From Tepidisphaerales bacterium (GTDB lineage: Bacteria; Planctomycetota; Phycisphaerae; Tepidisphaerales; Tepidisphaeraceae), in assembly GCA_044450885.1 (NCBI GenBank), contig JBIOJL010000001.1, positions 446 through 64,445 of the forward strand: a stretch of 64,000 bases of DNA, read 5' to 3'. This document shows, piece by piece, positions 978-63,226 of this stretch. The notes under the pieces were generated by a model that made no database searches, was not told the origin of the DNA, and saw only the letters and a list, made by a program, of their open reading frames with translations. How positions within the stretch are numbered: the stretch's first letter is position 1; the number at the start of each line of letters is the position of its first letter. The translations under genes and the position numbers were made by a program.

Positions 978-1256
978 CTGCTGCTGCGCCGTGATTCCGT
1001 GGGGTTTGGTCGCCCGCGATGATCTACCGTGGCCCCGCGATGACCCGTCGCGATGAGCCGTGGGTGTGCCGAAAGATCCGGTCAAGTGCTGCCGGTGCCC
1101 TCACCGGCAGAGTCGACCATCGATCAAGACCGCCAGCGAGGGCACTGGCGGCACTGTTGCGACCATTGTCGCCCGGATTCTTGGGCACACCCATGAGCTG
1201 TCGCGGTCACAGCCGCTTTGCCGCGAGCGGCTCGGTGGAGTAGGCTATTCCACCCT

Positions 1257-2717
1257 ATGGGTGACTCGACTCCTGCCGACGATTCGGTCCGCCGCTCCGG
1301 CTGGCCCCGGCCGCTCAAGGCGCGGCACCGCACGGGCGTCGTTGGTCTGGCCTCTTCGGGCAAGAGCACGTTCCTGGTCAGCGTCATCGACCGCATCTGG
1401 CGGCTGGACGACACCGACGAACGAAAGCTCGGCTTCTTCCACTTCACCCGCCACGTGCAGCAGCTCCCGCCATTCGCCGATGAGGGCGGGTTTCCATACC
1501 GGCAATACCGCGACTACTACCGCACGCAGCAGTGGCCGGACAAGACGGTGGCCACCAGCGAGTATCGCTGCAAGTTCTACCGCACCGGCCGGCATGCGCT
1601 GGGCCGGCTGGCGGCCGGGCTGTATGGGGAGGAACACACGCTGGCCGACATCCCCGGCGAGCGGCTGGCCGATTTCTCCATGGCGGGCAAGAGCTACGCC
1701 GAGTGGTCGGACTGGTTGCTGGACCGGCTGCAGGGCAACAAACAGTACCGGGTGCTGGCCGAGGAGTTCCTGCACCTGCTCGAGCAGCCGGCCCTGAACG
1801 AGCCGGCGCTGCTGAATGCCTACAAGATGGCGCTGGCGAACTTCACGCGGAAGATGCTGCCGCTGGTCTGCCCGTCGACGTTCCTGGTCCACGAGAAACA
1901 GCTCTATCCCAGGGGCGGCGACGAGCCGGCGCATGCGCTGCCGGTCGAGAGGCTGGTCGGCCGGGGCGTGTGCGGGCTGGATGAGACCACGCAGTTTGTC
2001 CCGCTGGGCGCGGCCGCCCGGTCGGCCAACCCGCAACTCGCGGCGACGATGGCGCAGCGCTACGACGACTACTACCAGGCGATCACCCGGCCGCTGGCCC
2101 GCGGGTTTGAGAACTGCGACGAGCTGCTGGTGCTGGTGGATGTCTGTGCCATCCTCGCCGGCGGGCCGGATGCGTACTATGGGGCGCGCTGGTCGCTGCA
2201 GATGATGCTGGAGGCGCTGGACCCCGGCTGCACCAAGACCGATCTGCTCACGGGGTTTGCCAAGGCGCTGTTCACGGGCCTGCGGCTCGGCCCGTCGCGC
2301 GTGCGGAAGATCGGGTTCGTTGCCACCAAGGCCGACGTCGTCCACAGCCGCGACCGGGCCAACCTGCGGGCGCTGCTGAAGGCCATGACCCAGGACCTGC
2401 TGGCCGCGGCCACGCTGCGGCGGCATTTGGATGTGGACTTCTTCTACTGCGCCGCCATCGAAGCCGGCGCCGACGGCGGCGAATACCCGCGCATCCGCGG
2501 CTGGGCCCGGCGCTCGGCCGAGTTGGAGTACCTCGAGTTCCCCAACTCCGCCGTCCCCCGCCAGTGGCCGGCCGAAACGCAGTGGGAAGGCCAGCGTTAC
2601 CGCTTCGCCGCCCCCGAGCCCCCGAAACTCGATCTGCTGGGCCAGAAGCCGTTTCCCAGCATCGGGATGGACGAGATCATGAAGTTCATCGGGTGGGATG
2701 GGGCGGAGGGAGAATGA
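1257..2717 (+). CDS. ycjX: YcjX-family P-loop NTPase (DUF463)
   Basis: P-loop VVGLASSGKSTFLVSVI. Other matches to my recollection of YcjX: DIPGERLADF, LVLVDVCAILAGGPDAY, a TKxD-like FVATKADVV, and a C-terminal KPFPSIGMDEIMKFIG. Length (~486 aa) also fits. ATG 1257 is preferred over the TTG at 1218 in the track. Confidence 0.85.
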   Translation: MGDSTPADDSVRRSGWPRPLKARHRTGVVGLASSGKSTFLVSVIDRIWRLDDTDERKLGFFHFTRHVQQLPPFADEGGFPYRQYRDYYRTQQWPDKTVATSEYRCKFYRTGRHALGRLAAGLYGEEHTLADIPGERLADFSMAGKSYAEWSDWLLDRLQGNKQYRVLAEEFLHLLEQPALNEPALLNAYKMALANFTRKMLPLVCPSTFLVHEKQLYPRGGDEPAHALPVERLVGRGVCGLDETTQFVPLGAAARSANPQLAATMAQRYDDYYQAITRPLARGFENCDELLVLVDVCAILAGGPDAYYGARWSLQMMLEALDPGCTKTDLLTGFAKALFTGLRLGPSRVRKIGFVATKADVVHSRDRANLRALLKAMTQDLLAAATLRRHLDVDFFYCAAIEAGADGGEYPRIRGWARRSAELEYLEFPNSAVPRQWPAETQWEGQRYRFAAPEPPKLDLLGQKPFPSIGMDEIMKFIGWDGAEGE

Positions 2718-2900
2718 CTGCATATGTGGCCAATGGCCGCCAAAGTGGGGCCAGCGTCCTCGCTGGCCATCTGTCCGCCCCCGCGGGAATTGCCCTGGGA
2801 TTGGTCGCAGTTGAAGAGGTTGGCTGCCTGCTTACTTACCACACACATAGGCGTGGCGACGAACAGCCGATATAATGGTCGTGAAGATGCGGCGGTGCCC

Positions 2901-3878
2901 ATGATTGAACGGATTGACTTCGAGAACTTCCGGATACTTAAGAAGGCGACACTGCCACTGTCGCCGCTGACGCTGCTGATTGGGCCGAATGGAAGCGGCA
3001 AGACAACCGTCCTTCAGGCGCTAAACGCACTGAAGGGTTCTGCCAATACGGATGTTGCCTCATTCACGCCCATTGGGTTAAGCCCGCAGGATGCGCCGCC
3101 GTCAGTCAGCGTTTACATGCGTTTTGGCAAGGAGGAAGCGGTCTGGCGCGAGCAGTGGAAGCCTCAACCTAGGCCGGCGCCCCAGGCTGCAGACGAGCGT
3201 GTGAAGAGGGTCGTTTCGCGAATCCGAGTGTTCAATCTCGATCATATCGCGATCGCGGCCGAATCGCCGGTGCAGGCCGGACTTGAACTGGCCGAGTCGG
3301 GCAGGAATCTGACGGCGGTTCTGGATCAACTCCGCGACGCCGCACCGGAGCGATTCGAGGCCATCAATTCTGACCTCTGCCGCTGGCTTCCTGAATACGA
3401 CCACGTTCTGTTCACAACGCCCAGATCCGGCCAGAAGGCATTCTCGCTGCGGCTTCGAGGTGTCCGTGGTGTCGTGCCATCCAAGGCGTTGTCTCAAGGA
3501 ACGCTGCTTGCCATGGCCATGCTCACGCTGGCGTACTTGCCGGATCCGCCGTCCGTTGTTTGTATCGAGGAGCCCGACCGCGGGCTGCATCCTCGCCTGT
3601 TGCGGGATGTCTGCGACGTGCTGCGGCGCCTGGCATATCCCAAGGATGCGGGGGACGACCGCGAGCCTGTCCAGGTTATCGCAACCTCCCATTCGCCGTC
3701 GATGCTCGACCTGTTCCGCGACCGGCCCGAGGAAGTGGTCATTGCGGAGCGGAACAACGATAACGTCTCCTTCCATCGTCTTTCCGACCGCACTGATCTC
3801 TCGGAAATCCTGCACGACACGAACCTGGGCGATCTCTGGTACGCCGGCGTCCTGGGGGGAGTCCCGGTTACGCCATGA
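2901..3878 (+). CDS. ABC/SMC-type ATPase (AAA_15/AAA_21-like)
   Basis: MIERIDFENFRILK...LTLLIGPNGSGKTT (Walker A), LSQGTLLAMAM (signature-like), VVCIEEPDRGLHP (Walker B/D-loop), VIATSHSPSMLD (H-loop). ATG at 2901; the 2724 start in the track is a read-through extension. Visibly lower GC than the flanks. Confidence 0.8.
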   Translation: MIERIDFENFRILKKATLPLSPLTLLIGPNGSGKTTVLQALNALKGSANTDVASFTPIGLSPQDAPPSVSVYMRFGKEEAVWREQWKPQPRPAPQAADERVKRVVSRIRVFNLDHIAIAAESPVQAGLELAESGRNLTAVLDQLRDAAPERFEAINSDLCRWLPEYDHVLFTTPRSGQKAFSLRLRGVRGVVPSKALSQGTLLAMAMLTLAYLPDPPSVVCIEEPDRGLHPRLLRDVCDVLRRLAYPKDAGDDREPVQVIATSHSPSMLDLFRDRPEEVVIAERNNDNVSFHRLSDRTDLSEILHDTNLGDLWYAGVLGGVPVTP

Positions 3879-4510
3879 AGATCGCGGTTTTCAGCGAATC
3901 GTCGGCCGACGAAGCTGCCGTCCGGATTCTGGCGGAGGCGGTGCTGGGACAGCCAATCGAACCGGTCGCAGGCAAGGCGCTGCGCCGGCCGCGAAACGGC
4001 TGGACCCATGTGGTGAAACTGCTTCGGGCCGTGATACTCGACCTGTATTTCCAGACGGATGCGGACGGGTTGATTGTCGTCGTTGATTCGAACGATTCGC
4101 CGTACCACGCACGGAACCATGACCCGGCAGCCGAGTCCGACTGCCGCTGGTGCCAGTTGATGCGCGAGGCCAACCGGGCGTGCCAGGCGCTGGCCGCCCG
4201 TCCGTGCAACAAGCGTTTCCGCGTGGCCATTGGACTCACGCCGCCTGCGATTGAAACCTGGCTCCTCTTCCGTCGCAGTCCCCACTACACGGAAGCTGCC
4301 TGGATACGTGGCCAGGGCGAGGGCCGGCCCGCGTTGAATCGCCGCCAGCTCAAGCAGGAACTCTACGGGACGATTTCGCCACCCCTGGCGCTGGAGACAG
4401 AGAAGATGGTGGAATCAGCGCGCAGGCTGGCAGGGGAGGTTGAGGCGTTTGAACGGGCGTTTCCGATCGGGTTTGGCGCGATGGCCGACGAACTTCGCCG
4501 TTGGCGCTGA
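3875..4510 (+). CDS. DUF4276-like / Toprim-like small protein partnered with the upstream ATPase
   Basis: ATGA overlap with the ATPase stop. IAVFSESSAD (acidic residue after strand 1), LIVVVDSND (DxD-like) and AIETWLL resemble the LEILVED / VVVCDLDD / EAWLL pattern I recall for DUF4276. No search was possible. Confidence 0.6.
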   Translation: MKIAVFSESSADEAAVRILAEAVLGQPIEPVAGKALRRPRNGWTHVVKLLRAVILDLYFQTDADGLIVVVDSNDSPYHARNHDPAAESDCRWCQLMREANRACQALAARPCNKRFRVAIGLTPPAIETWLLFRRSPHYTEAAWIRGQGEGRPALNRRQLKQELYGTISPPLALETEKMVESARRLAGEVEAFERAFPIGFGAMADELRRWR

Positions 4511-4564
4511 CATGTCCGGCTCGCCAACGCAGCCTTCGGCGATACAACCGCTTGAGAAACAACA

Positions 4565-4592
4565 TTGCCCCATCACCCGCCCGACGTACAAT
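4565..4592 (+). promoter_or_regulatory. Sigma70-like promoter candidate for ycjF
   Basis: TTGCCC (4565-4570), 16-nt spacer, TACAAT (4587-4592), then GGAG at 4612-4615 and ATG at 4621. Planctomycete promoter rules are poorly known. Confidence 0.25.
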
Positions 4593-4620
4593 GTGACGGG
4601 GTGTCGATACTGGAGCAACC

Positions 4621-5817
4621 ATGACTCAGAGCATCCCATCATCGTTCAGCCGCCCCCGGCCGGGACAGTCGCCGGCCGCCGTTGAACTGTTGCGCGAGGC
4701 GGTGCCGGTCGGAGCGCCGCAGGCGCAGCGGACCGGGCCGGCGCAGGGGATTCCGCCGTATGCGCTGGACCTGCTGGATGACGCGGTGTCGGTGTCGCCG
4801 CCGGCGGAGGATGCTGATGATGAGTCGCCCTGGGCCGAACAACTCGGCAAACCACACAGCCTGACGACCACGCTGCTCAACGCGCTCTTCGTGCTGGCGG
4901 TGGTGCTGGCGCTCTTCGTGGCGTCGCAGGCGGCGCTGCTCTTCAACCAAGTGGCGCTTTTGCCCGCGGTGGCCCGTCCGTTCGGCTACACGCTGCTGGC
5001 GATCCTGGCGGGCGTGCTCGCCTGGTGCGGGATGCGGTTCACCTGGAGATATCTGCGCCTGCGGGTCAGTCCGACGCTCGACCTCAACCTGCAAAAGGAC
5101 CTGCGGCGGCTCGACCAGGCCCGTCGCGAGATGCGCGAGCACCACGCCGCCCGGGCACGCGAGGTCCTGGCCAGCCTGCTGGAGGATTACCCGGTGGACC
5201 GCCCGCGCGAGATGCGGGAACTGCGGCAGGCCGGCTTCACGCGCGTGGAGATCGAGACGCTCAGCGGAACGCGATTTCACCTGAGCGGCCGGACCGCACC
5301 GGCCGACGACCCCGAGTGGCTGGCGATGTACGAGTCGGGTTTCCTGGCCACGCTGGACGCGGTGGCCGACCGGCAGGTGAAGCAGTATTACACGCGGGTG
5401 CTGACGTTCACGGCCGCCTCGCCGCGCGGCGGGCTGGACACGCTGATCGTGCTGTGGAGTTCGTACCAGATGGTGTCGGACCTCTGCCGCATCTACAACG
5501 TGCGGGCCGGGCGCTGGGGCACGGCGGTGATCCTGGGGCACCTGGTGGCCAACGTGCTGGCCGCCCGCGGCGTTCACACGGCCGCCGATTCGGCGGCGGG
5601 TTCACTCAGCAATGTGGCGCATCAGCATCTGTCGCAGACGGCGGCGGCGGCGGCGGGAATCGCCGCGAAGTTCCTCGGGCGCGTGGCCGAAGGCGGGGTG
5701 AACTGCCTGCTGATGTACCGGCTGAGCGTGCTGGCGCGGGATTATCTGCGGCCGATCCGCCGGCGGGTCGTGGCGGAGGAAAACGTGACGCGGGAGGAGA
5801 CGCCCGTCGCTGGATGA
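4621..5817 (+). CDS. ycjF: YcjF-family membrane protein (DUF697/UPF0283)
   Basis: Acidic and Pro-rich N-terminus, two N-proximal TM helices (ALFVLAVVLALFV, LLAILAGVLAWCG), a basic coiled segment, then a C-terminal hydrophobic DUF697-like region (LIVLWSSYQMVSDLCRIYNV...GGVNCLLMYRLSVLARDYLRPI). This is the usual partner of ycjX. Confidence 0.8.
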   Translation: MTQSIPSSFSRPRPGQSPAAVELLREAVPVGAPQAQRTGPAQGIPPYALDLLDDAVSVSPPAEDADDESPWAEQLGKPHSLTTTLLNALFVLAVVLALFVASQAALLFNQVALLPAVARPFGYTLLAILAGVLAWCGMRFTWRYLRLRVSPTLDLNLQKDLRRLDQARREMREHHAARAREVLASLLEDYPVDRPREMRELRQAGFTRVEIETLSGTRFHLSGRTAPADDPEWLAMYESGFLATLDAVADRQVKQYYTRVLTFTAASPRGGLDTLIVLWSSYQMVSDLCRIYNVRAGRWGTAVILGHLVANVLAARGVHTAADSAAGSLSNVAHQHLSQTAAAAAGIAAKFLGRVAEGGVNCLLMYRLSVLARDYLRPIRRRVVAEENVTREETPVAG

Positions 5818-5820
5818 AGA

Positions 5821-5868
5821 GTTCAAGGTTCAAGAGTTCAAGGGTTCAAAGGTCCAAGGGTTCCAGGA
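5821..5868. repeat. Tandem octanucleotide array (GTTCAAGG-like, ~6 units)
   Basis: gttcaagg ttcaagag ttcaaggg ttcaaagg tccaaggg ttccagga, directly after the ycjF stop. Confidence 0.8.
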
Positions 5869-7455
5869 TTGGGGCGCGTGGCGAGGATGCGTCCGTCAAA
5901 GGACATGACACAGCCGGCCGAACATCCTCTTCCACCATTGCACGTCTGGGGCCGACGTCTGTGGCGCGGGCTGGCGGCTACGATCCTTCTGCTGGTCGTC
6001 CTGCGCATCGGGTGGGGGATGCTCTGGAAACATCGGCTGCACGCGGCCGAAACGCAGATGAGGGCGGCGGGGACGTGGGTTGACGGGCCATGGGTGATCA
6101 CGGCGGAGAACGCGGACGAGCACTGGTCGCTGCTGCTGCGGGCGGCGAGGCTGGCCTCGACGCGACCGGGTTGGCCGGACGCCGGCGACTACATCCAGCC
6201 CGAAAGCATGTCGCAATCCAAATGGATTGAAGCCCACCACAAGGTCGAAGCGTCGGATGCGGCCGTCCTGTCGCTGGCCCGGCGGGCACGGGTGGTGTGG
6301 GAACAGTCGTCGCACAAGCCGTCGCCGGAGACGGGCACAGCAGTACCAGTTAATGTCACGGATTGCTGGAGACTGCGCGAGGCGATTGCCGAAGGAGCGA
6401 TTTACAGTCAAAGCCGGGGCGATCAGGCCGAGGCGATCCGCCGACTCCGCGATCTCGTGCATACGGCAGCATCGCTCTACCGTAATGGCGGCCTTGGCGA
6501 TGTGATGATGGGCGTTTACTTCGATAGAAGCACGACCTTGTCGATTCACTATTCCGTGGCCGGACTTGCCGGGGTGTCCGATCCCGAGGTCCGGCGCGAG
6601 TTGGAATCGCTGCTGGCGGAGCTTTGCGATGAGACGCCTCTCCAGCGTGCCGTGGATGCGGTCCCATGCTGGCGCCAGCCGGTCTTCGATTGCACAGACG
6701 TCAACGCGGCGGGCAATGGGTTCAACCGACTTCTGGCTCCGCTGGCAAATCGAACCAAGGCTCGCTGGGCGATCTACGTTTCGAGGATGTCGGAGGCTGC
6801 ACAGGCCGAAAGCCTGCCGGCCGCGCGGCGCGCAATGCCGCTGTCGACTTGGGTGCCCATGGTTGAAGGCTGGCACTACATGTGGGAGGGTTTTCCCAGA
6901 ATGCCGTCCGGTCACCCGCCGACACTAATTCGCTGGCTTTACCTCGATTGGGTTTCCAACGACGACAACAGAGGACCCGAGGACCTCTCGCCCATCATCA
7001 CCCTGCTTTTCGAGTCTCGTATGGCGCGCCGGTCTGCGGCAGCCGCAATTGCCGTCCACCTGTTTCGTGCGGACGCCGGACGCTGGCCGGTGAATCTGGA
7101 GCAACTCGTGCCGGCATATCTCCCGTCGGTTCCGATTGACATCTGCGCCGGAGACAGCGCCACCATGCAGTATCTGGTGTTGCAGGATTCACGATTTCCC
7201 GCCGGGCAGCGCCCGGTCCTTTATTACGCCGACCAGACGCCCATCCGGATGGGAATAGACGGGCTGCCCGCCGACATCCATCGCCATCTACCGTCACAGC
7301 CAGACTGGCCGCTTTACCGTCCATTGGGGTATGCGCAACAATACCGACAATACCGCGATCTCGCACGCCTTTCCTCACCGCAGAGTGTCAACAACAATCC
7401 AAACAAACCCAACGCAGCAGGGCAGAACCCCAAGCAGGGCGACGGCGGCCAATAG
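5869..7455 (+). CDS. Hypothetical N-terminally membrane-anchored protein
   Basis: Long ORF with one TM helix (GLAATILLLVVLRIGWGML) and no recognised motifs. Start uncertain (several in-frame ATGs). The 3' end overlaps the convergent gene by 81 nt. Confidence 0.55.
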   Translation: MGRVARMRPSKDMTQPAEHPLPPLHVWGRRLWRGLAATILLLVVLRIGWGMLWKHRLHAAETQMRAAGTWVDGPWVITAENADEHWSLLLRAARLASTRPGWPDAGDYIQPESMSQSKWIEAHHKVEASDAAVLSLARRARVVWEQSSHKPSPETGTAVPVNVTDCWRLREAIAEGAIYSQSRGDQAEAIRRLRDLVHTAASLYRNGGLGDVMMGVYFDRSTTLSIHYSVAGLAGVSDPEVRRELESLLAELCDETPLQRAVDAVPCWRQPVFDCTDVNAAGNGFNRLLAPLANRTKARWAIYVSRMSEAAQAESLPAARRAMPLSTWVPMVEGWHYMWEGFPRMPSGHPPTLIRWLYLDWVSNDDNRGPEDLSPIITLLFESRMARRSAAAAIAVHLFRADAGRWPVNLEQLVPAYLPSVPIDICAGDSATMQYLVLQDSRFPAGQRPVLYYADQTPIRMGIDGLPADIHRHLPSQPDWPLYRPLGYAQQYRQYRDLARLSSPQSVNNNPNKPNAAGQNPKQGDGGQ

Positions 7456-8400
7456 GCGCCTGAGCAGCATCCCTGCAATGGCCCACCGGGCAGCCCTCTT
7501 TCCGCCGATTGCGACCAGTCCGCCATACACTCGCACTGGAAATGCGATCAGACCACTCACAACCAGGAGTGCGAGCGCCACAGAAACTCGCAGAGGCGAG
7601 CGAAGCCAGTTACTGTCGACAGGCTCGGACATGGCCCAGACGATGAATGTGGTCGCCACGACCGGCAGCATGAGCAGCGGAGCCACGGCATAGCATCCGG
7701 CCGCCTCGGCCTGGGTGGGATCCTGCTTGCCCACCCGCCGAAAACAAGATCGCAGCCCGGCGCCCGCTTCGACCACAAGCAGCCCCACATAGACAAACAT
7801 TGCTGGCCAGCGTGTCATTCCCACCGACCAGAGCATCCGCGGTTCGAACATCCACGGGATCCCCGCGTCACGCGTATCCAGAAAAAACGATCCCAGCCCC
7901 ACCGCCCACAGGAAGAACGCCACTCCGAACATCGCAAACAACAACAGGATGGCCACACTGACCCAGAAGAACCGCGCGGCCTCGCGCAGTTCCAGCGGCA
8001 GGCGCATCTGTTGCTGCCAGGCGCGCCCGTTAAGCGTGGCCAGGAGAACGGTCTTGACGAAGGCTCGTACGCGCCCGATGTTCCGCCGCCTCAGCCACGG
8101 CAACGTCTGGGCCAGTAGCAACTCCCGCGTGAACGGCCGGCCGCACTCGCTGCAAACGTCCGACGGCGTGCCACGCAGGTCATACCCGCAACGCGGGCAG
8201 AGAATGGGATTCTGAGTGGTGGGTTCCGACGCCACGCAGCCAGTGGACCAGCCGTGGGCCTGTGTGTCAATCGGGTCAATGGGATTGATCCGGCGGGGAC
8301 TGTTGGCGGAGGCGGCGAATCGCTTCGAGATGCACCACGGCATAGCGGTCCTTGTCACGCCCGGCCGCCTGCTTCGCGAGAATGAGCGTGTCCAGATCAA
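7375..8400 (-). CDS. Polytopic membrane protein with N-terminal zinc ribbon (CPRCGYDLRG...CSECG)
   Basis: CxxC-x11-CxxC ribbon followed by at least 5 hydrophobic helices. The true start is probably internal (ATG 8343 or GTG 8235), because 8400 overlaps the upstream gene. Confidence 0.6.
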   Translation of the reverse strand: MIWTRSFSRSRRPGVTRTAMPWCISKRFAASANSPRRINPIDPIDTQAHGWSTGCVASEPTTQNPILCPRCGYDLRGTPSDVCSECGRPFTRELLLAQTLPWLRRRNIGRVRAFVKTVLLATLNGRAWQQQMRLPLELREAARFFWVSVAILLLFAMFGVAFFLWAVGLGSFFLDTRDAGIPWMFEPRMLWSVGMTRWPAMFVYVGLLVVEAGAGLRSCFRRVGKQDPTQAEAAGCYAVAPLLMLPVVATTFIVWAMSEPVDSNWLRSPLRVSVALALLVVSGLIAFPVRVYGGLVAIGGKRAARWAIAGMLLRRLLAAVALLGVLPCCVGFVWIVVDTLR

Positions 8401-8785
8401 TGACCTTCAGGTCGATGTCATCGAGCTTCATCGATACCGACATGGCTTCAACTTCCTCGTAGGTGCCAACGCCGGTGAGTTCGCCAAGGATGTCCAGACG
8501 ACCCAGATCCGTATCGAAGTTCAGATTGCGGAATCCGTGGAGGCGCGCGGGATCCTCGAATAGCGGCAGCTTGTCCGGACGCATACGGAAACGGGCGTTA
8601 ATCCCCTGCATGGCTCGATGAATCCGCTCAAGATTCTCGTCGGTCATGGGTGCAAAGACATCAACATCGAAGGTGGCCACCGGTGAGCCCCAGATCGATC
8701 CCGCCAGGCCGCCGACGACGATGAACCGCACATCATGGTCCTTCAGCCGCCTCAGCAACGCGGTAAACGAAATTGGGGTCGCCAT
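8276..8785 (-). CDS. Pol-beta superfamily nucleotidyltransferase-like protein (MNT/DUF6036-like)
   Basis: LLRRLKDHDVRFIVVGGLAGSIWGSPVATFDVDVF fits the hG[GS]-x9-13-DhD NTase motif. The C-terminal LILAKQAAGRDKDRYAVVHLEAI is typical of this small NTase family. ATG at 8785. Confidence 0.65.
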   Translation of the reverse strand: MATPISFTALLRRLKDHDVRFIVVGGLAGSIWGSPVATFDVDVFAPMTDENLERIHRAMQGINARFRMRPDKLPLFEDPARLHGFRNLNFDTDLGRLDILGELTGVGTYEEVEAMSVSMKLDDIDLKVIDLDTLILAKQAAGRDKDRYAVVHLEAIRRLRQQSPPDQSH

Positions 8786-9944
8786 AGAGCCTCTCGTGCA
8801 AGTTGCGCATGGTGTTGACGAAATCCTCGACACGAGCGAGACGCTGCTCGGGCGAAAGGGCAAGATGCTCGGCAACAAGGTCAAGATCCACGCCATGCGC
8901 ATCCTCACCCAGGCACGGGGACAATTGCTCTGCGATGGCGTGCGTCGAAACAGGCATCCAGGATGATTCTACCATGCCGTCCGCTGCAAATCCTCCTTCT
9001 TCGTGTGTTTCGTGTTTCGTGACTCCGCTCGGCCCCGGGGCCGGGACCTGTGGCGGCGGCCCTACCGCTTCCGCAGGTTGCGCGCCGTGTGGATCGCCAA
9101 ATCCAAACGTCGATCCGCATTCGGGGCAGCGATCGGGGGTGGCGCGAAGGTCGTAGCCGCATTTGGGGCAACACCACGGCGGAAACCCGCGGGCGGGGCG
9201 GCAGGCGCGCCAGACGGCGCGCATCGCCCAGTACGCCAGCAGCGCGACGCACGCGGCCAGCGTCCCGTCCACGACGGCGATCACAGCCCAATCGACGGTG
9301 CCGTTCACATGCGGGATGGTGTCCAGGTTGTCGATGCGCTCGGCATGAAGCCCATAATACGGGCGGTCGGTTGGGTCGTCGACCTGTAGCCTACCGTAGA
9401 CGCGTACCATCTCCCTGCTGGGCGGCGTTGTCATGTTGGCGGGAACGGCAACAGCGAGCGACCCGCCTCCGTGCGGATGGTCTCCGAAGAAGGGCTGCAC
9501 CAGGTTGAACTCGCCGCTGCTGAACGAGGTCAACGACATCCCGGTTACGATCACATGCTGGTTCTCAAGGTGCAGCGGATCACGCCCGGTCTCGCGGGTG
9601 AAAGACTGGAGGTTGACCTTGACGTAGCGGTAGGAGACTTTGCGGGGCGAGGCCGTCGGGACCCAATGGCGCAGCCACAACATCGCCACCACGCTGCACG
9701 CGACCAGCAGCGACCCGACGCCGAGGATGATGCCGAGGCGGCGTCTCACGACGATGATTGTACCATCTACGGAGCCCGCACCACCTCGAACGAGTCCTGC
9801 GGCTTGACCGAGCCGCGGCCGCCCCAGGCGAAGCCGTGGGCAACGTGGCCCCGCGGACGGGCACCGATGACCTGCCGACCTCGACACCGACCGTCGGCCG
9901 CCTGTCCATGACCGCCGACGCCGTATCAGATTCTTGCGATGCAC
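8733..9944 (-). CDS. Membrane protein with a C-proximal zinc ribbon (CPKCGYDLRATPDRCPECG) and a ~75-aa C-terminal extension
   Basis: TM (LGIILGVGSLLVACSVVAMLWL), ~170-aa domain, TM (WAVIAVVDGTLAACVALLAYW), ribbon, Pro-rich linker, then a helical tail (LSPEQRLARVEDFVNTMRNL). A likely start is GTG 9749 just before RRRLGIIL; the 9944 start is uncertain. Confidence 0.55.
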   Translation of the reverse strand: MHRKNLIRRRRSWTGGRRSVSRSAGHRCPSAGPRCPRLRLGRPRLGQAAGLVRGGAGSVDGTIIVVRRRLGIILGVGSLLVACSVVAMLWLRHWVPTASPRKVSYRYVKVNLQSFTRETGRDPLHLENQHVIVTGMSLTSFSSGEFNLVQPFFGDHPHGGGSLAVAVPANMTTPPSREMVRVYGRLQVDDPTDRPYYGLHAERIDNLDTIPHVNGTVDWAVIAVVDGTLAACVALLAYWAMRAVWRACRPARGFPPWCCPKCGYDLRATPDRCPECGSTFGFGDPHGAQPAEAVGPPPQVPAPGPSGVTKHETHEEGGFAADGMVESSWMPVSTHAIAEQLSPCLGEDAHGVDLDLVAEHLALSPEQRLARVEDFVNTMRNLHERLYGDPNFVYRVAEAAEGP

Positions 9945-10178: not shown

Positions 10179-10252
10179 GGCCGAGTACCCAAGTGGACTA
10201 AGGGGACGGATTGCAAATCCGTTATTCGCCGGTTCGAATCCGGCCTCGGCCT
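10179..10252 (+). tRNA. tRNA-Cys: tRNA-Cys (anticodon GCA)
   Basis: Acceptor GGCCGAG/CTCGGCC, D-arm CCCaagtggactaaGGG, anticodon arm ACGGA-ttGCAaa-TCCGT, T-arm GCCGG-ttcgaat-CCGGC, discriminator T. No encoded CCA. Confidence 0.9.
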
Positions 10253-10477: not shown

Positions 10478-13400
10478 ATGCATCATGCGATGAAGGAGGG
10501 GATCGTGCGCCGCAACGTAAACTCGTCTGCACGTTCAATCTGTCGCCGTGGCCACCGATTAGCCAGTCTTGGAAAGGCCGCGGCTCATGCGGTCGAGCAA
10601 CTCGAATCGCGTACGCTCCTGAACTCAGGCGGCGATCCCGGAATGCCGGTGTTGCCGCCAGGATGCGTCGGCGTGCAGACGGCGGCCGGGCTGGAGGTTT
10701 CGCACCAGTCGATTGCCGGGCTGTACGCCCCGAAGTACGTCATTCTCGACCGCACGCCGGCGTTTGCCGCGGACGGAACGCTGGCGCCGTTCGCCACATC
10801 CGGCCCGACGGGGCTGACTCCGGCAAAGGTCCGCCGCGCCTACGGCATCGACCAGATCATGTTCGGCTCGGTGACGGGCGACGGCACCGGGCAGACCATC
10901 GCCATCGTCGATGCCTACGACTACCCGACCGCCTGGGCCGACCTGCAGGCCTTCGATCTGGCCTTCGGGCTGCCGAACCCGCCGAGTTTCACCCGGGTCA
11001 ACCAGACCGGGGGGTCGACGATGCCCGGGACCGACCCGGCCGGAAAGGGCAACAGTTGGGCACTGGAAGCGGCGCTGGACATCGAATGGTCGCATGCGAT
11101 GGCGCCGGGCGCCGGCATCGTGCTGGTGGAAGCCACCACGCCATCGGATGCCGACCTGATTCAAGCCGCGGCCGGTTATGCGCGCACCATTCCCGGCGTG
11201 GTGGCCGTCACCATGAGCTTCGGCCGCGACGAAGACTCGGCCGTGACCGGCCTGGACACCTGTTTCACCACGCCCGCCGGACACCCGGGGGTCACGTTCC
11301 TCGCCTCAACCGGCGACAACGGCGCGCCGGGCGGGTATCCCGCGACATCGCCGAACGTGGTGGCCGTCGGCGGAACCACATTGACAGTAGACGCCTCGGG
11401 CAACTACGTCAGCGAAAGCGGCTGGTCCGGCAGCGGCGGGGGCATCAGCAGCTACGAGAACCAGCCGACGTATCAGAAAGGAGTTGTCACCCAGAGTTCG
11501 ACGCGCCGCACGATCCCGGACGTCGCGTTCGACGCCAACCCCAGCAGCGGTGTTTCCGTATGCGACAGTTATGATTTTGGCACAAGCACACCCTGGACCG
11601 TGCTCGGCGGCACGAGCCTGTCATCGCCCTGCTGGGCAGGCATCATCGCCGTCGCCGACCAGGCCAGGTCGCTGTCGGGGCTCGGGCCGCTCGACGGCAT
11701 CGCCAAGACGTTGCCAAGACTGTACAGCATGTCGTCGAGCGCATATCACGACATCGTCACAGGCAGCAATGGATACTCCGCGGGCGCTGGATACGACCTG
11801 GTGACGGGCCGGGGTTCGCCGATCGCCAATGTGCTGGTCCCCTTGCTCGTCGGCGCCGGGCCCCTGGTTACGGGCTCGACTCCGAACGGCGTGGTCGGCA
11901 GCACGCCAACCACGCTCGATTTCACCTTCAACACCGCGATGGATCCGGCCAGTTTCTCGATCGGCACCGACGTGGCCGGCTTCACCGGGCCGGGCGGCAT
12001 CGATCTGAAGCCGACGATCGGGGGGTTCGCCTGGCTGAGCGCGCAGTCTCTCCGCATCAACTTCGCGTCCAGCAGCGCGGAGGGGCTCTACACCATGGTC
12101 ATCGGTCCGCAGATTCTCTCGACCGACGGGCGGCCCATGGACCAGGACGGCGACGGCATTGCAGGCGAGGCGGTTGACGATCGGTACACCGCTACGTTCC
12201 GATACAGCAGTTCCACCATGGGAATTGTCTCCACAAGCCCCGCGGCCGGAAGCAACGTACTGCTGCCGATGACCACGCTCGAAGTGAACTTCACGAAGCC
12301 GTACGATCCGGCGTCGATCGGCACCAACGATCTGACCTTAAGCCAGGGAAGCGTGGCGGGCTTCACGCCGGTGGACAATGACACCGTTCGATACACGCTC
12401 GCGGGCCTGACGGCCGAGGGGACTCTCAATGTCAGCGTGGCGGCCGGCGCCGTCACCGATCTGGCCGGGAATCCCGGCAGTGCCTGGCTGGCCACCTACT
12501 ACCTCGACAATCCGACGCTGGCATTTCCGGCTCCGTTGCAGGCGATCACCAGCGCCAGCGGGTTCATCTACAGCCGCTCGACGACCACCTATCTGACCCC
12601 TGGAGACACCGACAGTTTCACGATCAGCCTCGACGCCGGGCAGGCGCTCACCATCGTCGCCGATCCGGGGACCGGGCTGCTGCCGTCGGTGGCTGCCCTG
12701 GATCCGTCGGGCCTCACGCTTGGGTCGGCGTCGGCTCCCGGCGCGGGCAAGGATGCCGTCTTGCAGACGGCACCGGTACTTGCGGCGGGAACGTATACCG
12801 TGGGCGTATCGGCCCTTTCGGGGACTTCAGGCTCGTGCACGGTGCAACTGCTGTTGAATGCGGCCGTGGAAGCGGAGGGGCACGACGGTGCGACGAATGA
12901 CACCCGGGCGACCGCACAGAGCATTGACGGCGCGTTCGTGGCGCTGATCCCCGGGTCGTACCGGGCGGCCGTTGTCGGGTGGGGCGGGATCGCCGGGGGC
13001 ACCGCTCTGAGCGCCGATTTCACATCCGGCGCCAACGGGTTCACCGTCGACAACTCGGGCGGCGGCCTGTGGCATCTGTCCTCGGGACACGGGGCCGACA
13101 CCGGACACTCCAGCCCACAGAGTTTCTATTACGGAACCGGCGAGAGCGCCACCGGCGGCGGAACCTACAACACGGGAAGCCGCAATTACGGGAGCCTTGT
13201 TTCACCCTCGTTCGTCGTGCCATCGGCCGGCACGCCCACCGTGGCCTTCAACTACATCCTCAGGACCGAAGGTTCCAGTTCCTACGACGTGGCGCGGCTC
13301 CAGATCAACTCCGGCAGCGGGTGGGTGACGCTGGCGAGCTACAACGCCGTTGCTGAGAGCGCCACCTGGAAGGCGGCCACGCCGGTCAGCATCGCCTCAT

Positions 13401-16400
13401 ATTCGGGCAAGACCGTGCAGATCCGATTCTATTTCGACACGGTCGACAGCGCAGCCAACACCTACGAAGGGTGGTACGTCGACGACGTGGTCGTCAAGGC
13501 CGACGTGGCCGGAACGGACTGCTATTCCGCGACGCTGGCGGCCGGCGAGCCCGTGAACGTGGGGCTGAGCCAACTCGCGGGCAGCGGCGCCCACGTGGCG
13601 CTGCAGGATGCCGCCGGTAACACGCTGGCGTCCGGGACAACGGGGGCCGGCAACTTCGCCGAGGTCATCCGCAACTACACGCCGGCGACCTCCGGCGTGT
13701 ACTATCTCGTGGTGACCGCCGGCACGGGCGCGGATTATGCCGTCGTCGTGACGCGCAACGCCGCGCTGGATATCGAGGCCAACGACAGCATCGCACTGGC
13801 CCAGGACATGGCCGGCGCACCGGCCGCCATCGGCACCATCGCGGTCGCCGGCGGTTCGCCGACGACGGTGTTTTCCGACGGCTTCGAGTCGGGCACGCTT
13901 GGCTCGGCCTGGAGCGCTTACGCCTCCGACGCAGTTTATGGCCGGACGCGGGTCAGCAGTTCTTACGGCGCGGCCGGCGGCGCCTATGCGATGCTGATGG
14001 ACACGGCCGCGACCGCCGGTTCGTACAATTTGAACGAGGCCGTGCTCACGGTGAATCTCGCGGGCGCGATCAGCGCTTCGCTCTCATTTTCAACGATCCA
14101 GTTCGCGGACGAGACCGATCCGATGACCGCCGACTTCACCGGCCACTTCAACGGCGACGGCGTGGCGATCAGCGCCGACGGCAACCGCTGGCACCCCGTG
14201 CTCAGCGCGCCGCTCGATTCGACGTGGAAGACATACACGATCGATCTGGTTGCCGAAGCAGCCAAGGCGGGCATGTCGCTCGGCGGCAACTTCAAGATCA
14301 AGTTCCAGCAATACGACAATTTTCCGCTGACGACGGACGGCCGAGGGTGGGACAACGTCGCCGTCACCGCGGCGATGCCGAATGCAGGCGACGACTACTA
14401 TCTGCTGTCGCTGACCGCCGGAACGGTGGCCCGTCTCTCGACGCTGACGCCCGGCGGCGGCCCCGGCGAATTCGTCAACACCCTTGACCCGGCCATCGAT
14501 CTGTACGATCCGGCCGGCAACAAGGTGGCCTCGGACGACAACAGCGCTGGCGACGGACGCAATGCGGCGATCGCATATGCCATTGGCACCAGCGGCACCT
14601 GGAAGGTGCGCATCCGTAGCGTCGACGGCACCAGCGGCGAATATGTCCTGCGGCGTTCGGCCGACATACCCGTGGACCCGACGCCCGCGCGGCCGGATCT
14701 GGCCGACCAGTCCGACACCGGACTGTCTTCGACCGACAACCTCACGCGGTTGAACAACAGTTCGCCGGCCACCGCCCTGCAGTTCCGCATCGGCAATACG
14801 ATCGCCGGCGCCGCCGTCGTGCTCTTCTGCGACGGCCAGGTCATCGGCAGCGCCGCCGCCGATGGGAAAGAAACGGTGATCGCCACGAACGGCTCGACCA
14901 TCCTGCCGGACGGCGCCCATGTCTTCACGGCAGTCCAGACGCCGGCAGGCTCGACGACGTCGCCGGCATCCGCGCCGCTTAATGTCACCATCGTCGCCAC
15001 CGCGCCGGGCATTCCGCCGGCGCCGGTGCTGCAGGCGGCCAGCGACACGGGTATCAGCCCGAACGACGGCATCACCGCCGACACCACGCCGACTCTGGAT
15101 ATCAATGCCGGGCCGTACTACCGCTTGTACCGCAACGGGTCGAAAGTCAGCGGCGATTATGAGACGGCCTCATCCTTCACTTCCGCGGTCCTGCCCGACG
15201 GCGCCTGGGAGTTCACCGTCACGGCGGTGGACGCGGCCGGCAACGAGTCGGCCCCGGGCGATCCCGCGCGGGTGACGATCGACACCGTCGCGCCGGCCAC
15301 CCCCGCCGCGCCGGACCTGCAGGCCGCAAGCGACTCCGGGATCAGCTCAACCGACAACCTCACGCGGGTGCAGATGCCCGTAATCGACGTTGCGGGTTCG
15401 CCCTACTACCGACTCTATCGCGATGGCATCCGCGTCAGCGGCCTGTACGACTCCACGCCGGCGTACGTTTCGGCCAGCCTGACTGACGGCGCTTACGCGT
15501 TCACGCTCGTCTCCGTCGACGCGGCCGGGAATGCTTCCCCCGCCAGCCAGCCGCTGAACATCATCGTCGACACGATCGCGCCCCGGACTCCCGCAACACC
15601 GGATTTGCTGGCTTCCAGCGACGGGGGCGGCTCGGACACGGACAACATCACCAACATCAACACGCCGACCTTTGCGGTGACGGCCGGTCCTTATTTCCGC
15701 TTCTACCGCGACGGGGTTCAGATCAGCGGCGATTACATTTCCGGAACGACATATGCCGCGGCGCCGCAGGCGGATGGCACCTACGGCTATGCCGCCTGCG
15801 CGGTCGACGCCGCCGGCAATGTCTCGCGGATGTCGGCGCGGCTGGCGGTGACGATCGACACAACCATCCTGTTCGCGCCGGACCTGGTGGCCGCGACGGA
15901 CAGCGGCGTCAGCGACAGCGACAACATCACCCAGTTCAACAACAGTTCTCCGCAGAAGGCGCTGCAGTTCCGGCTGGCGAACACTCAGGCGGGCGTGGCG
16001 GTGCAGTTGTACGCCAATGACATCTGTCTCGCCCAGTTCGTCGCGGCCGGACCCGACAGCCTGGTGACGTGCGATGAGTCGGCGATCCTCCCGGACGGGA
16101 CCTACCGCGTGGTTGCCCGCCAGCGGGATCCCATCCGGAAGCTGTTCGTCGAATCCACGCCGATGACCCTCACCATCGACACGGTGGCGCCGCAGCCGGC
16201 GACGCTGCGGCTCGATCCCGCCTGCGACACGGGCATCAGCAGCACCGACAACCTCACGAGTATTGCCTGCCCGCAGATCGACGTGAACGCCGAGTTCTAC
16301 ACACTGTTTGTGGACGGAGTTCAGAATGGGGCAGCCTACGGTTGCGGACAAGCCGGCCCCGACCTCGGCCAGGATGGCGCGCATGCGCTGGCGGCCATCG

Positions 16401-19400
16401 CCATGGACGTCGCGGGGAATGCGGCGCCGCTGTCCGAGGTCCTGACGGTCACGCTCGACACGGAGGCGCCGGATACGCCGCCCGCCCCCGACCTGGATGC
16501 GGGCAGCGACAGCGGCATCAGCAACACCGACAACATCACCAACGACAACACGCCCACGTTCAACATCACGGCCGGGCCGTACTATCGGCTCTACCGCGAC
16601 GGCGTGCTCATCAGCGGGCTGTATGAGACATCGCCGACCTTTACCGCGACGGTGCAAGCCGATGGTTCGGCGGATTACTGCCTGTATGCCGTCGACGCCG
16701 CCGGGAATGTCTCGGCTGCCAGTTCCCTTAACGTGACCATCGACACGGTCGCCCCGTCGGCCCCGGCGGCGCCGGACCTGGACGCATCAACCGATTCGGG
16801 TCTCAGCAGCACCGACAACATCACCAATGCCGCCAGCCTCAAGTTCTACGTCTCCACGGGCGCGGACTCGATGCGGTTGTTCATCAACGGCGCCCAGGTG
16901 ACGCCCGACGGCCAGCCGTCGGGCGAGGTCACGGTGGCGTCGCCGGGCGACGGAGTGTGGAGTTTCACGACGATGGCCGTGGATGTCGCCGGCAATGTAT
17001 CCCCGGCGAGCGCCGCGCTCAGTGTTACCGTGGATACGGTGGCCCCGGCGGTGCCGGCGGCCCCGGACCTTCAGGACGGCAGCGACAGCGGCAGTTCCAA
17101 CACCGACAATATCACCAGGATCAAGACGCCGGCATTCAACGTGGCGGCCGGCCCTTATTTCCAGTTCTACCGCAATGGCGCCCGAATCAGCGGGACGTAC
17201 CAGACAGGCACTTCCTACACCGCGCCCACCCAGGCGGACGGCACCTGGGCGTACACGGTGACGGCGATCGACGCCGCCGGCAACGAATCGGCCGGCAGTA
17301 GCGCGTTGAGCGTCACGATCGACACCGTCGCCCCCGCCGCTCCGGCCATTCCCGATCTGCAGGCGGCGAGCGACAGCGGCGTAAGTTCGACGGACAACGT
17401 CACCAACAACACGGCGCCGCTTGTCGACCTCGAGGCCCCGGAAGCGGGCATCCTCCATTATGTCGTTGACGGACTCGACACGGCCATACCGGTTGACGGG
17501 CCCGGTACGGTGACGCGCGCGGCCGGCGGTGGCGTTGCGCTCGGTCCGAAGATCGCGGTGGCGACCGGAACCGGCACATTTGACGTGGCCGTGGCCGACG
17601 TCAACAACGACGGCATACCGGACATCATCGCCACCAATGCCGTAGCACATACCGTGAGCGTCAATCTTGGCAACGGTGACGGGACATTCCAGGCCGCCAT
17701 TTCCACCTCGTTCGCGCACAATGGCCCCCTGGGAATCGCCGCGGCCGACTTCAACCACGACGGCAAATGCGATGTCGTTGTCGCCGACAGCACCGACAAA
17801 GCCTACGTCCTGTTCGGAAACGGCGCTGGTAGGTTCACGACTGGTCCCGTGCTGCAACTGAGGGCCGGCTGCTCGGTGATGAGGCTTGCCGCCGTGGACC
17901 TGAATGCCGACGGCAATGTCGACGTTGTTGCTGCCGAACGCTTGTACCCCGGCGTCGGCGTAGTCTACGGAAACGGCGACGGGACCTTTCAACCTTGTGC
18001 CTCGTACGACGCGGGCGGCGGGGAAATGTACGAGGTGGCCTTCGCCGACTTCAACAAGGACGGCCGCCTCGACATTGCATACCGCGTAGGAATCGCCGCG
18101 GACTGGTCGATCGTGACCATGCTCCAGGACGCCAGCGGCAAGTTCGGACCGCCCCTCTTCACCACCACCGGCAACAGCATCGGAGGCTTCGCTGTCGGAG
18201 ATTACGACAAGGATGGCTCTGTTGACCTTGTGGCGTCTCCGGGAGGCACCGCCGGCGAATTATACTTCCTCAAGGGGAACGGCAACGGGACTTTCACCCT
18301 GAGTGGACAGTCCGCTGTCGCCGCTGCCGGCCAGTGTGTTTCCGCGGATTTTAACGCTGATGGCAACCTGGATTGCGCCAGTCTCAGTTCCACGGCTGAC
18401 GCGATCGCTCTCCTGCTCGGCAATGGCGATGGCACGTTCCAGGCGTGCAAGGTCTACCCGACCAGCGGCAGCACGTTTGACCTCGTCAGCATCGACTTCA
18501 ACGCTGATGGCCGACCCGACCTCGCCATGCCCGACTACGAAGGAAACGCGGTGAATGTCCTCATGACCAGCCCGGCCGTGCTTGCCGATGGCATGCATAC
18601 GGCGTACGCCCGCATGGAAGACATCGCCGGCAACCTATCAGCCTCCAGCCCGTCGCTTACGATCACGGTCGACACGATCGCGCCCGCCGCGCCGGCGGCC
18701 CCGGACCTGCAGGCGGCCAGCGACAGCGGCATCTCCAACACCGACAACATCACCAACATCACGAACCCGGCCTTCAGCGTCTCGGCCGGCCCCTACTTCC
18801 GCTTCTACCAGAACGGCTTGCAACTGGGCGGGGACTACCAGACGGGAACAAACTACACGCTGGCCACACAGAGCGACGGCACATCGAGCTACAGTGTGGT
18901 GGCGGTGGATGCCGCGGGCAACGCGTCCGCTCCCAGCCCGGCGCTGAGCGTCACCATCGACACGGTGGCGCCAGACACCATCGCGCCCACGGTTCCCGAC
19001 CTCGAAGATGCCAGCGACAGCGGCATCTCCAACACCGACGACCTCACCAACAACGCCACACCGGGTTTTGCCGTCACCGCTCCCGAGGCCGGCGTCGTGC
19101 GGCTGATGGTGGATGGCGCAGCCGGGCCGGCGGTGCAGGTCGCGGGCCCCGGCATGGTCCGCCTGACCATCGCCTCTGCTCTCAGCGATGGCGCGCACCA
19201 GGTGAGCGCTGCGATGGAGGACCTTGCAGGCAACCAGGGGCCCCGGAGCACAACTCTATCCGTGACCATCGACACGGTGGCGCCGGCCGCACCGGCCGCA
19301 CCCGACCTCGAGGCCGCCAGCGATTCGGGCATCTCCAGCACGGACAACATCACCAACGTCAAGGCACCGATCTTCGACGTGGGCGCCACCCCGTACTTCC

Positions 19401-27739: not shown

Positions 27740-27903
27740 GCCGGCTCCCTTTCGCGTGGCGGCGTTATGATCGAGCATCAAGACACTGTCGGACTCTCTG
27801 TGAAGCTGCCGCTGAGGAAATCCCTCACTGAACTGAATTGCAGCGATCCGGTTTGGCTGACACCAAGAGCGGGCTCCAGACGCGGCCCGCGGGAGGAGAA
27901 CAC

Positions 27904-63131: not shown

Positions 63132-63226
63132 CACCGTGGTCGGACCACGTATTCCCGCAATCGGGAGGGCCGTGCTTCTGCACGGCCGGGGCAGAGTGGT
63201 GCCGGTGCCCTCACCGGCACGGTCCC

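Follow-up and report, generated by a model that had tools for sequence, protein, structure and literature searches.

ATPases of the AAA15/21 type are paired with Toprim_Old, DUF4435, RloB or DUF4276 effectors in the OLD, PARIS, AbiL and MADS3-4 systems (PMC11464382). Hma-embedded candidate 01 (HEC-01) likewise joins an ATP-binding cassette (ABC) ATPase, HEC-01A, to a Toprim protein, HEC-01B (Payne et al., bioRxiv 10.1101/2024.01.29.577857). The adjacency of ycjX and ycjF is reported to be near-universal, with the two genes in a single transcription unit (PMC3041696). We analysed a stretch of 64,000 nucleotides (the window) of contig JBIOJL010000001.1 (assembly GCA_044450885.1, positions 446 to 64,445, forward strand), a Planctomycetota contig with a total GC content of 0.648 that NCBI lists as a Tepidisphaerales metagenome-assembled genome (MAG). 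Here ycjX and ycjF are separated by a 1.9-kb segment encoding an ABC-type ATPase and a small protein, g2. This segment is probably an autonomous, horizontally mobile two-gene module, with an immune function, that fills the gap of an ancestrally adjacent ycjX/ycjF pair.

The locus comprises the following features, in window coordinates.

1257-2717, forward strand: ycjX (DUF463 P-loop protein), left conserved flank; Pfam DUF463 (PF04317) at 3.5e-45, open reading frame (ORF) 1218/1257-2717
2718-2900, forward strand: left spacer, 183 nt, with an 8-bp GC hairpin at 2749-2768 and TATAAT at 2871-2876
2901-3878, forward strand: compact ABC-type ATPase, 325 aa; AAA_21 at 4.6e-27, AAA_15 at 1.6e-21
3875-3878, forward strand: ATGA stop/start overlap of the ATPase gene and g2, read from the sequence as translational coupling
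3875-4510, forward strand: g2, 211 aa, locus tag ACHRHE_00020; no Pfam model for the family
4511-4620, forward strand: right spacer, 110 nt, with TTGCCC (4565), 16 nt, TACAAT (4587-4592), and GGAG at 4612-4615
4621-5817, forward strand: ycjF (DUF697 membrane protein), right conserved flank; PF05128 at 1.9e-20, TIGR01620 at 2.5e-19
2705-4606, no strand: variable segment, non-homologous to the relative L001 (blastn, window against L001)

A first-pass annotation, made from the letters of the window, had recognized YcjX hallmarks at 1257-2717 and YcjF architecture at 4621-5817, and the DUF463 and DUF697 matches bear it out; NCBI names the first flanking product 'YcjX family protein'. It had also seen two genes with an ATGA overlap between them, as we find. 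The resulting gap of 1,903 nt leaves the pair neither adjacent nor coupled. Some details needed correction. The right spacer is 110 nt as described, but the left is 183 rather than 184 nt, and TATAAT is present about 4 nt away from the position first given (~2867-2872). The term 'ATPase pair' was wrong because g2 has no P-loop and only the first gene encodes an ATPase. A longer in-frame ATPase ORF from 2724 was considered and rejected as it is not conserved in the relative L002; since the AAA_15 and AAA_21 profiles also begin at residue 1 of the 2901 product, 2901 is the real start.

Outgroups preserve the uninterrupted arrangement. DUF463 is followed directly by DUF697, 109-120 nt apart, in L008, L009-L011 and L012, whose YcjX proteins are 63%, 49% and 45% identical to that of the window, respectively, and in Escherichia coli K-12 ycjX and ycjF overlap by 4 nt. 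The arrangement in the window is therefore a derived insertion, and the adjacency in E. coli and other bacteria on which the first-pass annotation had relied agrees with both these gaps and the literature (PMC3041696).

Close relatives, defined by YcjX at least 90% identical, are the window itself, L002 (a Tepidisphaeraceae MAG), P0164 (a JGI contig), L001 (a Phycisphaerales MAG) and ERZ1426827 (an ENA contig). L002 carries the same cassette, collinear with window 2842-5768 at 84.9% nucleotide identity, and P0164 is a further carrier, with an intact g2 (93% identical) followed by ycjF. The slot of L001 instead holds an unrelated 1.17-kb segment with one 242-aa gene (GC content at third codon positions, GC3, of 0.61), and that of ERZ1426827 a 63-aa DUF2281 protein followed by proteins of 297, 90 and 132 aa. 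Only 1216-2704 and 4607-5781 of the window match L001 in blastn, and no cassette remnants were found in the L001 slot; ycjX is 86-87% identical at the nucleotide level to both L001 and L002, with homology stopping at 2704-2706. Three distinct cargos thus occur among five close relatives, at a site that is empty in three outgroups, and the ycjX-ycjF gap of this Tepidisphaerales clade is a replaceable, multi-cargo slot. Only one of the three cargos carries any defence-like annotation.

The synteny comparison proposed in the first-pass annotation accordingly returned adjacent genes in the outgroups and either the cassette or another cargo in close relatives. That annotation had regarded the same two genes in most relatives, with native codon usage, as the mark of a conserved operon. 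Three of the five relatives do carry the cassette, but its codon usage is non-native in both lineages compared, and two relatives and all outgroups lack it. On an outgroup-rooted neighbour-joining tree of YcjX the window is basal, followed by ERZ1426827 and then by L001 with L002; this topology weakly suggests that the cassette predates all four lineages and was replaced twice, or else that cargo recombines between lineages through the flanks. Scans of metagenome contigs with YcjF alone and with a YcjX alignment returned no relatives.

The L001 cargo (L001 9470-10198) belongs to another family without a Pfam model, and Pfam, PADLOC and NCBIfam gave no family match for its 242-aa product. A total of 158 homologues, all unnamed and ~245 aa long, come from sources including Anaerolineales, Lysobacterales and Tahibacter; the single further context inspected, where the homologue stands alone, was uninformative.

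The two cassette genes also occur together without ycjXF. In all five other genomes examined, among them Opitutales ASA1, a Blastocatellia genome and one of 5.8 Mb, an AAA_21/AAA_15 ATPase gene (321-369 aa) is immediately followed by a g2 homologue; the neighbours are unrelated, and ycjXF was found near none of these pairs. The ATPases are 37-41% identical to that of the window over the full length, and the 4-nt overlap with g2 is identical in L002, L003, L004 and L006. An apparently truncated ATPase in L003 (a 144-aa call at 7570-8004) proved to be an artefact, as tblastn recovers an intact ATPase of ~333 aa from ~7003. By these sequence comparisons, the ATPase and a g2 protein of ~210 aa travel as a coupled unit across phyla. 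In two of the contexts (L004 8719-12285 and L027 6671-8414) a MarR regulator comes next after the pair, and beyond it a membrane protein (DUF2339 for L004, DUF2157 for L027); this arrangement may be shared or orthologous.

Divergence between the window and L002 dates the cassette relative to its flanks (NG86 estimates). Synonymous divergence (dS) is 0.48 for the ATPase and 0.31 for g2, against 0.44 for ycjX and 0.51 for ycjF, so the insertion is old rather than recent. The ratio of nonsynonymous to synonymous divergence (dN/dS) is 0.17 and 0.18 in the cassette and 0.14 and 0.15 in ycjX and ycjF. The cassette therefore entered before the window and L002 split, was kept under purifying selection and co-diverged with its flanks. 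In L002 each cassette gene has since gained one in-frame stop, at ATPase Q123 (to TAG) and at about codon 80 of g2; L002 g2 has also lost 9 nt beside the invariant D71, and its FPxGF motif, otherwise invariant, has the change F200S; ycjX and ycjF are intact. Because the stops are substitutions and the fragment recurs in a second record, assembly error is unlikely. By these lesions the cassette has been inactivated in L002, where both genes are pseudogenes.

Base composition sets the cassette apart from its flanks. Total GC is 0.608 (ATPase) and 0.643 (g2) against 0.684 and 0.699 in the flanks, and GC3 is 0.70 and 0.75 against 0.90 (ycjX) and 0.87 (ycjF), in line with the A/T-richer third positions first noted by eye. 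Had GC and codon usage matched those of the flanks, the insertion would have been in doubt; they are distinguishable. The ATPase has the lowest GC3 of all 26 called genes in the window (mean 0.823, s.d. 0.059), and low GC3 is kept in both lineages (0.72 and 0.74 against flanks of 0.88 and 0.87 in L002). Among the five unrelated genomes, the cassette lies below its neighbours in GC3 in three (L003, L006 and L028). The next three lowest values in the window belong to orphan genes directly downstream of ycjF, so composition alone would not prove a foreign origin: the compositional dip at the cassette is real but not unique.

These orphans, at 5869-9944 (528 aa forward, 341 aa reverse and 403 aa reverse), match no Pfam family and have GC3 of 0.72-0.75. 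The interval 5915-8273 is common to the window and L002 at only 78% nucleotide identity and is absent from L001. Together, the orphan genes and this diverged interval indicate that the whole ycjXF neighbourhood is fast-evolving accessory DNA.

The ATPase is complete in its motifs: Walker A (GPNGSGKT, 2982-3005), signature (LSQGT, 3489-3503), Walker B (VVCIEEPD, 3555-3578) and H-loop (3681-3695), all ABC motifs being intact. Its best PADLOC match is HEC-01A (4.4e-46; six HEC-01A models at or below 1e-33), followed by PDC-M07A (1e-30), mad3 (5.6e-30), AriA (2.9e-28 and 2e-24), AbiLi (2e-21) and Old (1.4e-17). The NCBIfam MADS3 model gives 3.8e-33 at 115 bits, far under its 420-bit cutoff, and in the PDB the protein matches the N-terminus of Ts OLD (6P74). 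It is compact, lacking most of the HEC-01A insertion between Walker A and the Q-loop region. An AlphaFold2 (AF2) model made without an alignment was unusable, with a pLDDT (predicted local distance difference test) of 41. Its identity to the plasmid ATPases that have a DUF4276 partner is just 22-33%. Where plasmid-borne relatives precede DUF4276 genes (L017, Aeromonas veronii pHX3; L021; L022), the pairs have genes for a DNA methyltransferase, a DEAD-box helicase or Mrr beside them; HEC-01 was defined from such Hma/MADS-type contexts.

The partner g2 matched no model of Pfam, PADLOC or NCBIfam with a threshold as loose as E≤10. It has 184 homologues in a word-indexed search and 744 clusters at 50% identity in an exhaustive profile search. 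Named sources include Planctomycetota, Verrucomicrobiota, Opitutales, Acidobacteriota and Blastocatellia, and the best homologue outside its own clade, from other phyla, is 48% identical. Invariant residues include E8, S9, E13, D71, R91, E127, K160, Y164 and FPxGF (196-200). In a confident AF2 model (pLDDT 92.7; predicted template modelling, pTM, score 0.90) the elements run b1(2-6)-a-b(29-30)-a-b(65-71)-a-b(116-122), then helices, and the invariant E8, D71 and E127 immediately follow strands. The modelled strand order and placement of acidic residues are compatible with a Toprim-type arrangement; the supporting matches are weak. RloB is the top sub-threshold Pfam match in 6 of 40 g2 relatives (best 5e-4), collinear over residues 57-188 in relative P0011, and DUF4276 matches 2 of 40 below threshold. 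When g2 was compared by hhalign with 3 and then 10 DUF4276 proteins, only the N-terminal 12-25 columns aligned, at a probability below 1%, pairing 'SES.ADE' of g2 with 'EGqTEE' of DUF4276.

By analogy with OLD, PARIS, AbiL, MADS3-4 and HEC-01, the ABC ATPase would act as a sensor or scaffold that restrains g2 until infection or some other trigger frees or activates it; g2 would be a small acidic-site effector and may be a highly divergent nuclease of the Toprim/RloB kind. A divergent nuclease of this kind held by the ATPase is, by a slight preference, the most likely mechanism; family membership is not thereby established. YcjF would be expressed from a promoter-like element brought by the cassette, or by read-through.

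The spacers bear on that last point. Upstream of ycjF, TTGCCC-16-TACAAT with GGAG lies where it was first described and is the only sigma-70-like match in 1000-6200 (1 found against 0.5 expected by chance); planctomycete promoters are poorly defined. The motif sits in cassette-specific DNA. Both hexamers and their spacing are identical in L002 (3559-3586), though the spacer overall is only 70% identical, and the motif is absent upstream of ycjF in L001 and the three outgroups, whose ycjX-ycjF spacers showed no recognizable homology to the 110-nt spacer. The first-pass annotation had left open whether ycjF acquired or kept a promoter of its own; as the motif lies in cassette DNA and only in cassette-bearing alleles, an acquired promoter, itself a prediction, is favoured. 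In the left spacer, TATAAT and its surroundings are kept in L002 (2707-2841 is not), and a sigma-70 scan found no -35 element for it. The perfect 8-bp hairpin at 2749-2768 is present in the minimum free energy fold (z = -1.55, not significant); a terminator reading was not adopted, as there is no U-tract.

Several readings of the locus compete with a foreign module. The first-pass annotation itself offered one: ATPase and g2 could be functional partners of YcjX/YcjF in a clade-specific four-gene operon, for instance a membrane-stress module. All four genes are co-oriented with short spacers, and the arrangement has been kept over dS of ~0.3-0.5 under purifying selection in three lineages. Yet the pair occurs without ycjXF in five independent genomes, which is why we reject a unit tied to YcjXF; conversely, ycjXF occurs without the pair in the outgroups and E. 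coli, unrelated genes replace it in close relatives, and the L002 nonsense mutations fall in both cassette genes while ycjX and ycjF are intact. We regard such an operon as very improbable. No more credible is an ancestral pair between ycjX and ycjF, deleted elsewhere, with the window as the primitive state: the cassette is indeed present in both basal (window) and nested (L002) members of the clade on the YcjX tree, but precise independent losses would be needed in three outgroup lineages and in Proteobacteria, leaving gaps of 0-120 nt, the codon usage is atypical for the host, and the nearest g2 homologue beyond the clade is only 48% identical and from other phyla. Uninterrupted outgroups, an autonomous pair elsewhere and other cargo in relatives instead support the original proposal, in which a foreign cassette of two genes was inserted between ycjX and ycjF.

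What such a module does is a separate question. The pair could be an autonomous non-immune module: two genes of the toxin-antitoxin or addiction type, or else an ABC-ATPase complex with a housekeeping task such as repairing DNA or processing RNA. The Pfam description of AAA_21 is 'putative AbiEii toxin', no nuclease family signature is detectable in g2, neighbours in most other genomes are housekeeping genes, HEC-01 showed no defence activity, and no g2 relatives were found on the phages of INPHARED or the plasmids of PLSDB. On the other side, the best ATPase matches are all defence-system models (down to 4e-46), the coupling of ATPase and small partner parallels AbiL, MADS3-4 and PARIS (PMC11464382), and patchy cross-phylum spread, low GC3 relative to hosts, turnover and pseudogenization are typical of defence or accessory genes. 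We consider a non-immune module rather unlikely, and infer by analogy that the pair may serve defence.

Several observations weigh against an immune, Toprim-like module. The defence role is putative, and HEC-01, the nearest named relative, gave no protection in the only published assay (bioRxiv 10.1101/2024.01.29.577857). Only one of the five other contexts is rich in toxin-antitoxin genes, and a tblastn search with g2 found no match among the plasmids of PLSDB or the phages of INPHARED. By families or fold searches g2 is not recognizably Toprim: hhalign against 10 DUF4276 plasmid proteins gave a probability of 0.3%, Foldseek of the g2 model against the PDB (which holds OLD, Gabija and PARIS) and BFVD gave nothing at E≤1e-3 (template modelling scores all ~0.3), and a profile built from the g2 alignment drew only ARF GTPases at E>0.1, which is noise, from the PDB sequences. 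The DxD motif of the family is not strictly conserved, reading DSND in the window. As for the insertion and its history, low GC3 extends to native-looking orphan genes nearby, making composition alone weak evidence, and the rooting that implies two independent replacements depends on 5 against 1 informative sites.

The borders of the slot are unmarked. No integrase, tRNA, att-like or terminal repeats were found to delimit it, direct and inverted repeats at the cassette borders are at chance level only, and Rfam families are absent there, the nearest tRNA lying at 10179. The breakpoints fall at the very ends of ycjX and ycjF. With no border signals and breakpoints at gene ends, flank-mediated homologous exchange is the most economical mechanism, and we infer that the conserved ycjX/ycjF flanks recombine homologously and so exchange the cargo.

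Upstream of ycjX, a GC-rich palindromic element of ~70 nt (1086-1155; core CTGCCGGTG-CCCT-CACCGGCAG) looks, from its sequence, like a dispersed repeat of the repetitive extragenic palindromic (REP) kind. It recurs on the opposite strand 3' of ycjF in L002 (5246-5313, 78.6% identity), and a 25-nt piece lies at the far window end (63195-63219). Rfam 'miRNA' matches at the element reflect only the hairpin.

Elsewhere in the window, a DUF1559 (SBP_bac_10) protein with a prepilin-like N-terminus is encoded at 16-909, with the window maximum GC3 of 0.94; such proteins are typical of Planctomycetota. A tRNA-Cys gene (10179-10252) lies directly upstream of the first of two giant forward-strand ORFs, 10478-27739 (5,753 aa) and 27838-33198 (1,786 aa).

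As an insertion, the cassette is routine genome plasticity. Its wider interest lies in g2, a sizeable family that Pfam, PADLOC and NCBIfam all lack. The family is strictly linked to a minimal ABC ATPase resembling HEC-01A and is an experimentally accessible candidate for a novel type of effector within the large class of defence systems driven by ABC ATPases. To our knowledge, almost no defence biology has been tested in the phyla that hold the pair. The locus also suggests that tightly linked conserved pairs such as ycjX-ycjF can act as recombination anchors for accessory genes, and its intact, pseudogenized, replaced and empty slots form a natural series for cassette turnover. A bolder proposal, which we hold to be unlikely, is that the pair is an undescribed cross-phylum immune system whose effector fold has no detectable PDB relative, and that the Tepidisphaerales gap is a hotspot placing such cargo within an operon for envelope stress. 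Infection by phage phiX174 induces ycjXF in E. coli (PMC8125068), so envelope damage during infection would turn on the cargo through transcripts that run on from the ycjX promoter.

Among known systems, HEC-01 is closest in its ATPase: HEC-01A is the best model for the window protein, and each consists of two genes, the first for an ABC ATPase and the second for a small protein. The differences are that g2 matches no PADLOC model, HEC-01B included (0 matches at E≤10), that the window ATPase falls ~80 residues short of it, most of profile positions ~50-183 being absent, and that the pair lies outside an Hma helicase-methylase-ATPase system, its neighbours being ycjX/ycjF and downstream genes without a family. 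HEC-01 is, moreover, itself unvalidated. AbiL (RloA-RloB) and MADS3-MADS4 share an AAA_15/21 ATPase, which in the window matches mad3, MADS3 and AbiLi, and a partner gene of ~210-230 aa overlapping the stop of the ATPase gene; among g2 relatives the top match below threshold is RloB, and plasmid ATPase relatives are followed by DUF4276. Identity to the DUF4276-paired plasmid ATPases is nevertheless 22-33%, the MADS3 score is 115 against 420 bits, g2 against the DUF4276 profile is not significant, and the window lacks a methyltransferase or other MADS genes.

PARIS (AriA ABC ATPase and AriB DUF4435 Toprim nuclease; PMC11464382) similarly couples an ATPase to a separate small effector and offers a plausible mechanistic analogy, in which a trigger would make the ATPase scaffold let go of the effector. 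The matches to AriA are partial, however, the best stretch of the 2.9e-28 model being residues 157-270, and g2 has no DUF4435 match (E≤10) and no Foldseek link to the 8UX9 chains. At 325 aa against ~470 aa in PARIS, the window ATPase probably lacks the AriA hexamer-forming insertion. Compared with OLD-like ATPase and Toprim systems generally, the AAA_15/21 ATPase has intact motifs, and the two genes are adjacent, co-oriented and inherited together; for a Toprim-type partner, g2 has no Toprim_Old, DUF4435, RloB or DUF4276 match, sub-threshold matches occur only in relatives, and the acidic positions are compatible.

The flanks agree with the E. coli ycjX-ycjF(-tyrR) operon in DUF463, DUF697, order and orientation. 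There the genes overlap by 4 nt and are co-transcribed (PMC3041696), whereas in the window 1,903 nt with two foreign genes intervene and ycjF has a promoter-like motif of its own. The slot differs from accessory-gene hotspots in being without integrase, tRNA or att-like repeats and in lying inside a normally co-transcribed gene pair rather than between operons, but resembles them in its fixed flanks, empty outgroup site, differing cargo in relatives, low-GC cargo and cargo decay.

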